Virus record (IMG/VR): IMGVR_UViG_3300021425_003554
Direction: 5' to 3' (one strand)
Source of the DNA: a virus
Taxonomy: Duplodnaviria; Caudoviricetes
Length of the DNA stretch: 64,000 nt
Shown here: positions 39,571 through 40,364 of the stretch, one piece after another
Position numbering within the stretch: the first letter of the stretch is position 1
How the letters are laid out: each line of letters begins with the position of its first letter
Position numbers and translations under genes: made by a program
Notes under the pieces: generated by a model
What the model saw: only the letters and a program-made list of their open reading frames with translations
Database searches by the model: none
Told to the model about the DNA's origin: nothing

Positions 39571-39590
39571 TAATGAAGTTAAGTAACAAT

Positions 39591-40364
39591 ATGCAACTAT
39601 TGTTCGATCACACCCTGGGAAAACAAGAACACACTGACCTAGTGCTGTGTCGTCCCATGGCAATCGTGGATGACACCGAAGAAGTTGAAGCACTGTGCGA
39701 GGGTTGGCTGGCATTGGATCACCCGATCAAAAAACAGGAAGTTTTTTATCAATCACGTAGCACACGCATAAACCTGGATGAATACAAACCTAGGTACAAA
39801 AAGCACGAATGGCAAGGACAACCCATAGAGATCAAAATAATCGATGCCAGCGAGATGGTGAAACTGTTGGGTCTGCCACACATCTATAAACAATACATGA
39901 CCAGAAAAAAATTTACGCAGGATTACGATCCTTTCCTACACTATAACAAACGGGATCAATTCATGCTGTTCTACATCGGTACAGCGGACAACATCGTGGG
40001 ATTCACCAAACAGAAAAGATATCGATATCAAGAGGACAACTACATTGCCCAATTGGGCGACGATCTGTTGGATCTCGCTGGGTTGGAATCCGTGATACAC
40101 GCCAACACTGTGCCCATATCATTGATCACCCTGGACATGGAAATACTCTGGGCCAGTGAACACAATGTTTCTTATTTTTACATGGGATCCGGGTACGAAG
40201 CCAGTTCCGTGTATAAATCGAACTATCGTGGATTCGAATGGTGGACGGGCACCGAATGGAGCAAGGACAAAAAACTATACAGGAGTCTATGCAAGAGAGA
40301 TTCTAGGATCGAGACTTTAAAGGATGTCGCCATGCTCCCGTCACTGATTCGAGATGACTCTTAG
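39591..40364 (+). CDS. ATE1/Bpt-like aminoacyl-tRNA:protein transferase (GNAT fold)
   Basis: EALCEGW..FYQSRSTRINL (ATE_N-like) and YFYMGSGYEASSVYKSNYRGFEWW (ATE_C YLG..S..YK..Y-like). Start 39591 preferred; ORF track gives 39573. Confidence 0.6.
   Translation: MQLLFDHTLGKQEHTDLVLCRPMAIVDDTEEVEALCEGWLALDHPIKKQEVFYQSRSTRINLDEYKPRYKKHEWQGQPIEIKIIDASEMVKLLGLPHIYKQYMTRKKFTQDYDPFLHYNKRDQFMLFYIGTADNIVGFTKQKRYRYQEDNYIAQLGDDLLDLAGLESVIHANTVPISLITLDMEILWASEHNVSYFYMGSGYEASSVYKSNYRGFEWWTGTEWSKDKKLYRSLCKRDSRIETLKDVAMLPSLIRDDS

Follow-up and report, generated by a model that had tools for sequence, protein, structure and literature searches.

A virus-borne clade of ATE1/Bpt-like transferases and its constant Cys-Pro partner gene in uncultured marine phages

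The gene under study lies on the plus strand of IMG/VR virus record IMGVR_UViG_3300021425_003554 (Duplodnaviria; Caudoviricetes), represented here by a stretch of 64,000 nucleotides that we call the window. Its product belongs, as a highly divergent member, to the aminoacyl-tRNA transferases of the ATE1/Bpt superfamily, a placement that holds both by sequence profile and by fold, and its constant partner is the neighboring gene orf195, not the structured RNA that lies upstream. On balance we favor an active transferase, probably using Arg-tRNA, which together with an oxygenase-like partner would act on one substrate unlike the classical acceptor. To our knowledge, all characterized ATE1/Bpt enzymes mark protein N-termini for degradation and none is known from a virus; the literature that was searched held no description of a phage ATE/Bpt-like enzyme. 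The original prediction made from this DNA had proposed an ATE1/Bpt-like transferase with a possible link to the upstream RNA. The superfamily assignment stands by profile and fold, the RNA link does not, and orf195 went unmentioned there.

Results

The gene and its coding status

An uninterrupted open reading frame (ORF) of 263 amino acids (aa) runs from 39573 to 40364 on the plus strand. Because M7 of this ORF is invariant, most homologues begin at its equivalent and family profile matches on the ORF start at position 6, comparison with relatives makes ATG 39591 the more likely true start, giving a protein of 257 aa whose residue numbering is used below.

39591 to 40364, plus strand: transferase gene (257 aa; alternative upstream ATG at 39573, 263 aa), Cys-less ATE/Bpt-superfamily aminoacyl-tRNA transferase-like protein

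The ORF is real and under purifying selection. It has 402 homologues in marine metagenomes at 68–98% identity, all without a functional name, and the median pairwise ratio of nonsynonymous to synonymous substitution rates (dN/dS) among 77 viral copies is 0.2, as would be found for a functional coding gene.

Family assignment by sequence profile

Searched alone, the window protein matched nothing in Pfam, PHROG or NCBIfam, and phmmer against Protein Data Bank (PDB) sequences was also empty. A profile from its close homologues, searched against 1.84 billion cluster representatives, recovered 276 family representatives (clusters at 50% identity), mostly of 220–265 aa, and 77 of these form alignment A2, the source of the family profile. 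Used in hmmsearch against PDB sequences, the A2 profile matched K. lactis and yeast ATE1 with an E value of 6e-9 over the ATE_C core. Pfam ATE_C (PF04377) was matched by 54 of the 77 relatives, with a best E of 1e-12, and PF04376 (ATE_N) by none in the same Pfam scan. The most distant relatives match NCBIfam Bpt models with E down to 8.6e-15, at scores of 12–55 bits compared with curated cut-offs of 170–358. When A2 was compared by hhalign with an alignment of Acinetobacter Bpt, the probability was 98.3% (E 2.6e-14, 158 columns), with YQSRSTRI aligned to the Bpt C..C..CRV segment and Y.YMGSGYE.SS.YK...GFEWWTG..W aligned to the ATE_C motif Y.YLGY.....KM.YK...P.E.L..G.W. The ATE_N-like and ATE_C-like motifs on which the original prediction was based thus reflect real homology and not chance, as judged from the PDB profile match and the hhalign probability.

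Fold, and the possibility of an ordinary acetyltransferase

Structure prediction depended strongly on the input alignment. A first AlphaFold2 model made from 29 close homologues had a predicted local distance difference test score (pLDDT) of 64, and in it ATE1 was not separable from plain GNATs, with plain acetyltransferases reaching Z 9–10, close to ATE1. With A2 as input, AlphaFold2 gave a pLDDT of 93.8 and a predicted template modeling score of 0.90. The top Foldseek match of this confident model is human ATE1 (8tzv_A, E 4.8e-7), and the next matches are almost all dependent on aminoacyl-tRNA, namely aaPGS/MprF, FemX, yeast and K. lactis ATE1, and LFTR. VIA-align against human ATE1 8tzv_A gave Z 14.3 and a root-mean-square deviation of 4.4, with 218 residues aligned across model positions 1–257, and against K. 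lactis Ate1 7wfx_A it gave Z 12.6 with 217 residues aligned; the two-domain layout of the model, an N-domain followed by a GNAT core, superposes on that of ATE1. LFTR matched with a Foldseek E of 7e-4 (2z3k) and a VIA-align Z of 7.6 (2dps), and had no profile match. A search of BFVD matched no named viral structure. The comparison with ATE1, Bpt and Fem-type enzymes by Foldseek and profile, which had been proposed as a check alongside the original prediction, therefore places aminoacyl-tRNA transferases on top.

An alternative explanation could be an ordinary acyl-CoA-dependent GNAT acetyltransferase that merely resembles ATE_C, but we consider this highly improbable. It would account for the shared GNAT fold, for the Z values of plain acetyltransferases near ATE1 in the poorer model, and for the few relatives that match Acetyltransf_1 or Acetyltransf_7. 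However, ordinary single-domain acetyltransferases reach only Z 9 or less with the confident model and cover residues 77–223 only, compared with the much higher score of ATE1 over both domains, and so the fold is not that of an ordinary acetyltransferase. The profile matches to ATE1 and Bpt also speak against it. Moreover, on inspection of the alignment the motif-A segment (family LG...S, window protein ISLIT) resembles SLGKVS of ATE1, the acetyl-coenzyme A loop Q/R-x-x-G-x-G/A was not found in motif A, and the ATE-specific YK...E..W tail is present, as is the terminal E..W..G.W motif.

Catalytic and pocket residues retained, acceptor-site features lost

Residue roles are taken from work on the K. 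lactis enzyme, klAte1 (PMC9351520). By alignment, Y208-K209 of the window protein correspond to klAte1 Y303-K304, with Lys in 76 and Tyr in 67 of the 77 relatives; E184 corresponds to E277 (Glu in 67/77), S167 to S255, and T180 to S273. klAte1 E277 is the acidic residue required to bind the Arg of Arg-tRNA, and the aminoacyl pocket is S, S, E, Y in Arg-using ATE1 and A, A, Q, L in Leu-using Bpt (PMC9351520). The pocket of the window protein, with S167, T180, E184 and F196, has the ATE1-like pattern. Since its Ser/Thr/Glu are as in ATE1 and not the Ala/Ala/Gln of Leu-specific Bpt, the donor would be a basic amino acid, probably Arg. A basic stretch is also present where Bpt reads QKKAWKR.

In ATE_N the cysteine cluster is a C4 zinc or Fe-S site, formed in klAte1 by C23, C26, C95 and C96 (PMC9351520), and all of these metal-site cysteines are replaced in the phage family, which agrees with the missing N-terminal Cys cluster of the original prediction. 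Bpt C70/C73/C76 align with F/W52, S55 and T58, and among the 77 relatives no N-domain column has 30% or more Cys. In klAte1 the acidic residue at the N-terminus of the acceptor is bound by R80, an Arg of G[FW]RRSG, and the R80E enzyme is inactive (PMC9351520). By spacing in the human ATE1 alignment R80 would be the first R of GFRRSG, where the family, at low alignment confidence, has Leu or Ile; the global hhalign alignment, of low confidence in this part, puts invariant G38-W39 on Bpt G54-F55, with L40-A41 replacing the RR of GFRRSG. The Arg that reads acidic N-termini thus appears to have been lost. Two other arginines of the N-domain, R56 and R59, are invariant, and R59 is aligned to invariant Bpt R77. 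With the Zn/Fe-S cysteines missing and the Arg for acidic N-termini apparently lost, the acceptor is probably not the classical Asp/Glu protein N-terminus; the acceptor site would have been rebuilt, and what it accepts may differ from an acidic protein end.

The partner gene orf195 and the cassette

The ORF belongs to the structural-gene region of an uncultured marine giant phage of T4 type, near genes for a baseplate hub, a portal, a major head protein and an SbcC-like protein. The slot that it occupies comprises the following neighbors.

38662 to 39087, minus strand: SegE-type GIY-YIG endonuclease (PF19835, E 2.6e-38), left border of the slot, left of the RNA in nearly all loci
39173 to 39567, plus strand: conserved structured RNA of about 400 nt, a neighbor outside the cassette, last hairpin at 39549–39567
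40303 to 40890, minus strand: partner gene orf195, Cys-Pro protein with PPCPYA and DHP motifs (phrog_28122)
40808 to 41182 and 41437 to 42294, minus strand: coiled-coil ORF and baseplate-hub gene, right border of the slot (PF12322, phrog_150, synteny)

The syntenic order is SegE-like nuclease (minus), RNA (plus), the cassette of transferase (plus) and orf195 (minus), coiled-coil ORF (minus) and baseplate hub (minus). In the window orf195 is convergent with the transferase gene and overlaps its 3′ end by 62 nt. Across loci it stands beside the transferase gene in 126 of 146, being convergent with overlapping 3′ ends in 121 and in tandem in 5, and most of the 20 transferase loci with no partner end at a contig edge. 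Conversely, orf195 occurs in none of the 62 loci lacking the transferase gene, where the RNA runs straight into the coiled-coil ORF. The pairing is kept in four rearranged layouts, down to 25–30% transferase identity, and with a short transferase of 145–160 aa.

Several of these layouts may be described individually. In L083, L086, L146 and L173 the cassette (a transferase 25–31% identical, plus partner) is upstream of the RNA and its two genes are still convergent, with about 54 nt between their 3′ ends. Five other loci (L093, L104, L118, L187 and L199) carry the short transferase, which is a GNAT core only and scores about 95 bits against the family hidden Markov model, in tandem with a partner homologue of 143–170 aa (e.g. 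L104:4676-5119 and 5104-5532, both minus); here the pair is downstream of a much diverged RNA copy of which only about 120 nt match. At L069:1572-2969 (minus) and L076:1789-2988 (minus) a radical-SAM/SPASM gene is directly upstream of the cassette and the RNA is absent.

The partner alignment (A5) has an invariant C54-P55 in PPCP[YF]A, and D130-H131-P132, E136, G146 and R188 are equally invariant. Of 25 partner members, 21 match DUF6875 (PF21780) below the cut-off, with 14–20 bits compared with 24.5, and only over profile positions 2–66; the Cys-Pro is invariant in the partner, and the Arg and Gly of RxGxVCP are out of register. By hhalign the partner reached 31% with one true DUF6875 protein and 64% (E 6.7e-5) with an alignment of DUF1415, both around the Cys-Pro, and DUF6875 or DUF1415 is carried by 11–23% of the partner's ESM Atlas neighbors. 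A search of PDB sequences with the partner profile found nothing credible, including AglA if present in that copy. DUF6875 is cytochrome P422, a family of tryptophan-acting enzymes whose heme is ligated by the Cys of RxGxVCP (bioRxiv 10.64898/2025.12.11.692455). We therefore treat orf195 as a possible remote relative of DUF1415/DUF6875 thiolate-heme proteins, and its reading as a heme protein as a lead.

A classical N-degron function?

The most conventional interpretation is that the enzyme writes N-degrons. Proteins of the host or the phage would receive Arg or Leu at their N-termini and so be passed to ClpS/ClpAP for degradation, in one step or with Aat first capping the new Arg with Leu/Phe. 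In a variant of this idea, the partner could oxidize the N-terminus first, much as thiol dioxygenases prepare substrates for ATE1 in the Cys/Arg branch of eukaryotes. ATE1 and Bpt, which come closest in sequence and in fold, are all transferases for protein N-termini, both domains of the model align with ATE1 over the 218 residues given above, the invariant R56 and R59 are retained in the N-domain with R59 on invariant Bpt R77, and oxidation followed by arginylation is a logic that eukaryotes do use. Nevertheless we think such a function unlikely, if far from negligible. The four Zn/Fe-S cysteines are gone and the R80 equivalent appears to be Leu/Ile, when R80E alone inactivates klAte1 (PMC9351520). 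Moreover, a gene for ClpS, Aat or a protease was linked to the cassette in none of the loci examined, and free amino acids are the substrates of those enzymes that have been characterized in the family to which the partner presumably belongs.

The upstream structured RNA

The element upstream of the gene is a real structured RNA on the plus strand. It is conserved at 74–94% nucleotide identity in 77 of 80 related loci, above the identity of the protein, and RNAalifold predicted 76 pairs; compensatory changes are seen in 24 of these, and numerous G-U pairs are compatible with the plus strand only. Its covarying hairpin at 39549–39567 ends 23 nt before ATG 39591 and 5 nt before ATG 39573, and the ORF is thus directly downstream of the candidate noncoding RNA, as first described. 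No match was found at the RNA with ARAGORN (tRNA/tmRNA) or Rfam. The single-stranded words CTCACCACAG and CTACCACAG change together (A to G; CC to GT). Neither the T-loop-like stretch nor the ACCA words are constant among homologues, the latter turning into GCCA or AGTA.

RNA copies were sought by nhmmer and by a scan of viral contigs for an invariant 19-mer, which occurs in more than 120 of them. With or without the cassette, the RNA holds a fixed slot between the SegE-like gene and the baseplate-hub block. The flanks were long enough for a comparison in 55 loci, of which 38 have a family gene near the RNA and 17 do not, and the RNA is full-length in most of the 17; four further contigs of 40–197 kb contain the RNA 19-mer and no family gene, and on a 196-kb contig without the transferase gene the RNA is full-length. 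The reverse is seen in L069 and L076, which have the transferase gene without the RNA. In seven loci (L009, L019, L023, L060, L061, L067 and L071) ORFs are inserted between RNA and transferase gene; these are of 220–250 aa (e.g. L009:2357-3022, plus), have no Pfam match bar one weak PhyH, and overlap the transferase start by 19–28 nt.

These patterns bear on whether the protein is an RNA-linked factor that binds or modifies the upstream RNA as a tRNA mimic, or alternatively whether the RNA is a long leader controlling the gene. In most loci the RNA does immediately precede the gene in the same orientation, a covarying hairpin lies just ahead of the start codon and no terminator separates the two, and RNA and family gene stay no more than about 2.5 kb apart in several of the rearranged layouts. 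Yet the RNA persists in the same slot in loci that have no gene, the gene persists in two loci that have no RNA, other ORFs come between them, and the proximity of the two is explained by their shared syntenic slot. We accordingly regard such a link as improbable. The tRNA-mimic reading was rejected on the negative ARAGORN and Rfam results and the unconserved T-loop-like and ACCA features, and an obligate coupling of RNA and gene on synteny and on the long contigs that have the RNA but no gene; the tRNA-mimic or regulatory link suggested in the original prediction is not supported.

Elsewhere in the window, the Rfam freshwater-2 RNA motif is present at full length at 51885–51969 (plus strand; 73.4 bits, gathering threshold 49.9) and ends at the start of an ORF at 51967–52395.

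Distribution of the clade

The clade is large and essentially viral. Its ESM Atlas neighbors are up to 100% viral, and the genomes of 185,579 species yielded only 7 matches, all in metagenome-assembled genomes (MAGs) of unrelated taxa and mostly on short contigs. It was not found by tblastn in 50,697 GenBank phage records, using the window protein and two family members as queries. Among cultured jumbo phages the nearest are Phosso, Vibrio phage 2.275.O and PA5oct, whose capsid proteins share about 70% identity with that of this phage, and none of the three has the transferase gene.

P0248 and its relatives form a neighboring cellular clade of proteins of about 260 aa with ATE_C only and no ATE_N in bacteria of the Candidate Phyla Radiation (Dojkabacteria, Shapirobacteria, Microgenomates), and are named GNAT acetyltransferase or arginine-tRNA-protein transferase by the sources. 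In a KSB1 MAG (L211:908-7998) a distant ATE_C-like homologue is co-directional with a Rce1-like CAAX protease, a GARS-type ATP-grasp ligase, HlyD and an AcrB pump, a neighborhood that looks like a peptide or natural-product cluster. In Acinetobacter baumannii (L202:529-2094) the aat and bpt genes lie side by side in one orientation, with rimI as a neighbor; PLSDB "plasmid" records carrying A. baumannii aat/bpt are of 0.3–4 Mb and look like pieces of chromosome.

Discussion

The patterns detected are, in our view, best accommodated by a transferase of the ATE1/Bpt branch that may have changed its acceptor and that travels with a putative second enzyme. The clade appears to have dropped the parts that define the classical acceptor site and kept the catalytic and tRNA-facing parts, and its fixed partner may be a heme oxygenase. 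In the mechanism that we propose, the transferase would take an amino acid, probably Arg, from host aminoacyl-tRNA and join it to the amino group of an acceptor. Likelier candidates for this acceptor than the classical N-terminus are small amines, derivatives of amino acids or peptides, in parallel with AglC and AglA described below. The product of orf195 would probably be a thiolate-heme oxygenase of the DUF1415/DUF6875 kind, and the two proteins would most likely act in succession on one substrate. Some weak context is in line with such tailoring, i.e. the KSB1 homologue, which has genes for an ATP-grasp ligase, an efflux pump and a CAAX protease around it, and the radical-SAM/SPASM genes of L069 and L076. 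More tentatively still, the pair could be a virus-only two-enzyme module in which host charged tRNA and a thiolate-heme oxygenase would yield an oxidized aminoacyl conjugate, possibly a small Arg-derived metabolite or a protein end that is oxidized and then aminoacylated.

Several observations weigh against this interpretation. First is that every characterized member of the ATE/Bpt branch known to us modifies protein N-termini, and that the window protein passes no curated model of Pfam, PHROG or NCBIfam. Secondly, the donor is assigned from four positions of the pocket in an alignment with about 12% identity, and R56 and R59 could rebuild a pocket for an acidic residue, the alignment around GW/GFRRSG being of low confidence. 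Thirdly, the link between partner and heme is weak, with sub-threshold Pfam matches over about 60 N-terminal positions, hhalign values of 31% and 64%, and an empty PDB search. Finally, about four viral loci with room for a partner carry the transferase gene but no partner, convergent overlapping genes are no operon, and the shared insertion or deletion of the two genes could mean joint acquisition only.

If the proposed module is real, it would be the first aminoacyl-tRNA-dependent tailoring pathway known from a virus and would add a new acceptor specificity to the ATE/Bpt branch. If the transferase is active, phages would be drawing on charged tRNA for chemistry outside translation. The compact scaffold of 257 aa may be useful for studying acceptor choice in this branch.

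Comparison with known systems

Bpt (Pfam ATE_N plus ATE_C; PRK01305 "arginyltransferase"; aspartate/glutamate leucyltransferase) is similar in size, at about 240–270 aa, and has the same two-domain layout, and the hhalign match (158 columns) takes in the end of ATE_N and continues as far as the end of ATE_C. Common to Bpt and the phage protein are R-[IV]-x-[LV]-x-x-[FY], the basic stretch, LG...., Y.Y.G, YK and E..[LW]..G.W. The phage protein differs in that no cysteine of ATE_N is kept, the RR of GFRRSG appears to be lost, the pocket is Ser/Thr/Glu instead of Ala/Ala/Gln, a further conserved C-terminal tail WS.D...Y..LC.RDS is present, and every curated cut-off is failed; its clade, moreover, is essentially viral and is paired with the Cys-Pro protein, not with aat or clpS. 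Eukaryotic ATE1 (human 8TZV, K. lactis 7WFX, yeast 7TIF/8E3S) provides the best structure and the best PDB profile match, and the equivalents of ATE1 S255, S273, E277 and Y303-K304 are kept. Compared with ATE1, however, the phage protein is about half the length at about 12% identity, and lacks the C4 zinc/Fe-S site, the C-terminal domain and insertions and, apparently, an R80 equivalent. FemX/FemA, aaPGS/MprF, LFTR (Aat) and Sbb17 share the fold and tRNA-dependent chemistry (Foldseek E 1e-5 to 7e-4, Z 7.6–12.9) but have no sequence-profile match, and the ATE-specific motifs place the phage protein with ATE/Bpt.

For the partner, P422 (DUF6875, PF21780) and DUF1415 (PF07209) resemble it in an N-terminal W..FV..P helix, after which come an invariant Cys-Pro-[FY]-[AV] and a beta strand, as well as in an HP motif about 80 residues later and in length, although the Trp-binding motifs of P422, Dx2(Q/H)x3K and Rx(M/L)x3Dx2F, are not recognizable in the partner. 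For the pair as a whole, the closest parallel in logic is the argolaphos pathway of Streptomyces monomycini. There, AglC needs Arg, ArgRS and tRNA to make AMPn-Arg, which is N-hydroxylated by AglA, a small thiolate-heme enzyme of non-P450 fold (PMC12866846), and the GNATs of the cluster are PF13480-type (PMC8976061). In A2, 12 of the 77 relatives also have a match to PF13480. This is an analogy only, since AglA belongs to YqcI/YcgG (PF08892) and not to DUF1415/DUF6875, AglC was compared by description, and the phage genes are convergent and outside any biosynthetic cluster. The logic is nevertheless the same as that proposed for the phage cassette, in which an Arg-tRNA-dependent GNAT and a small Cys-ligated heme enzyme would act on one Arg-containing substrate.

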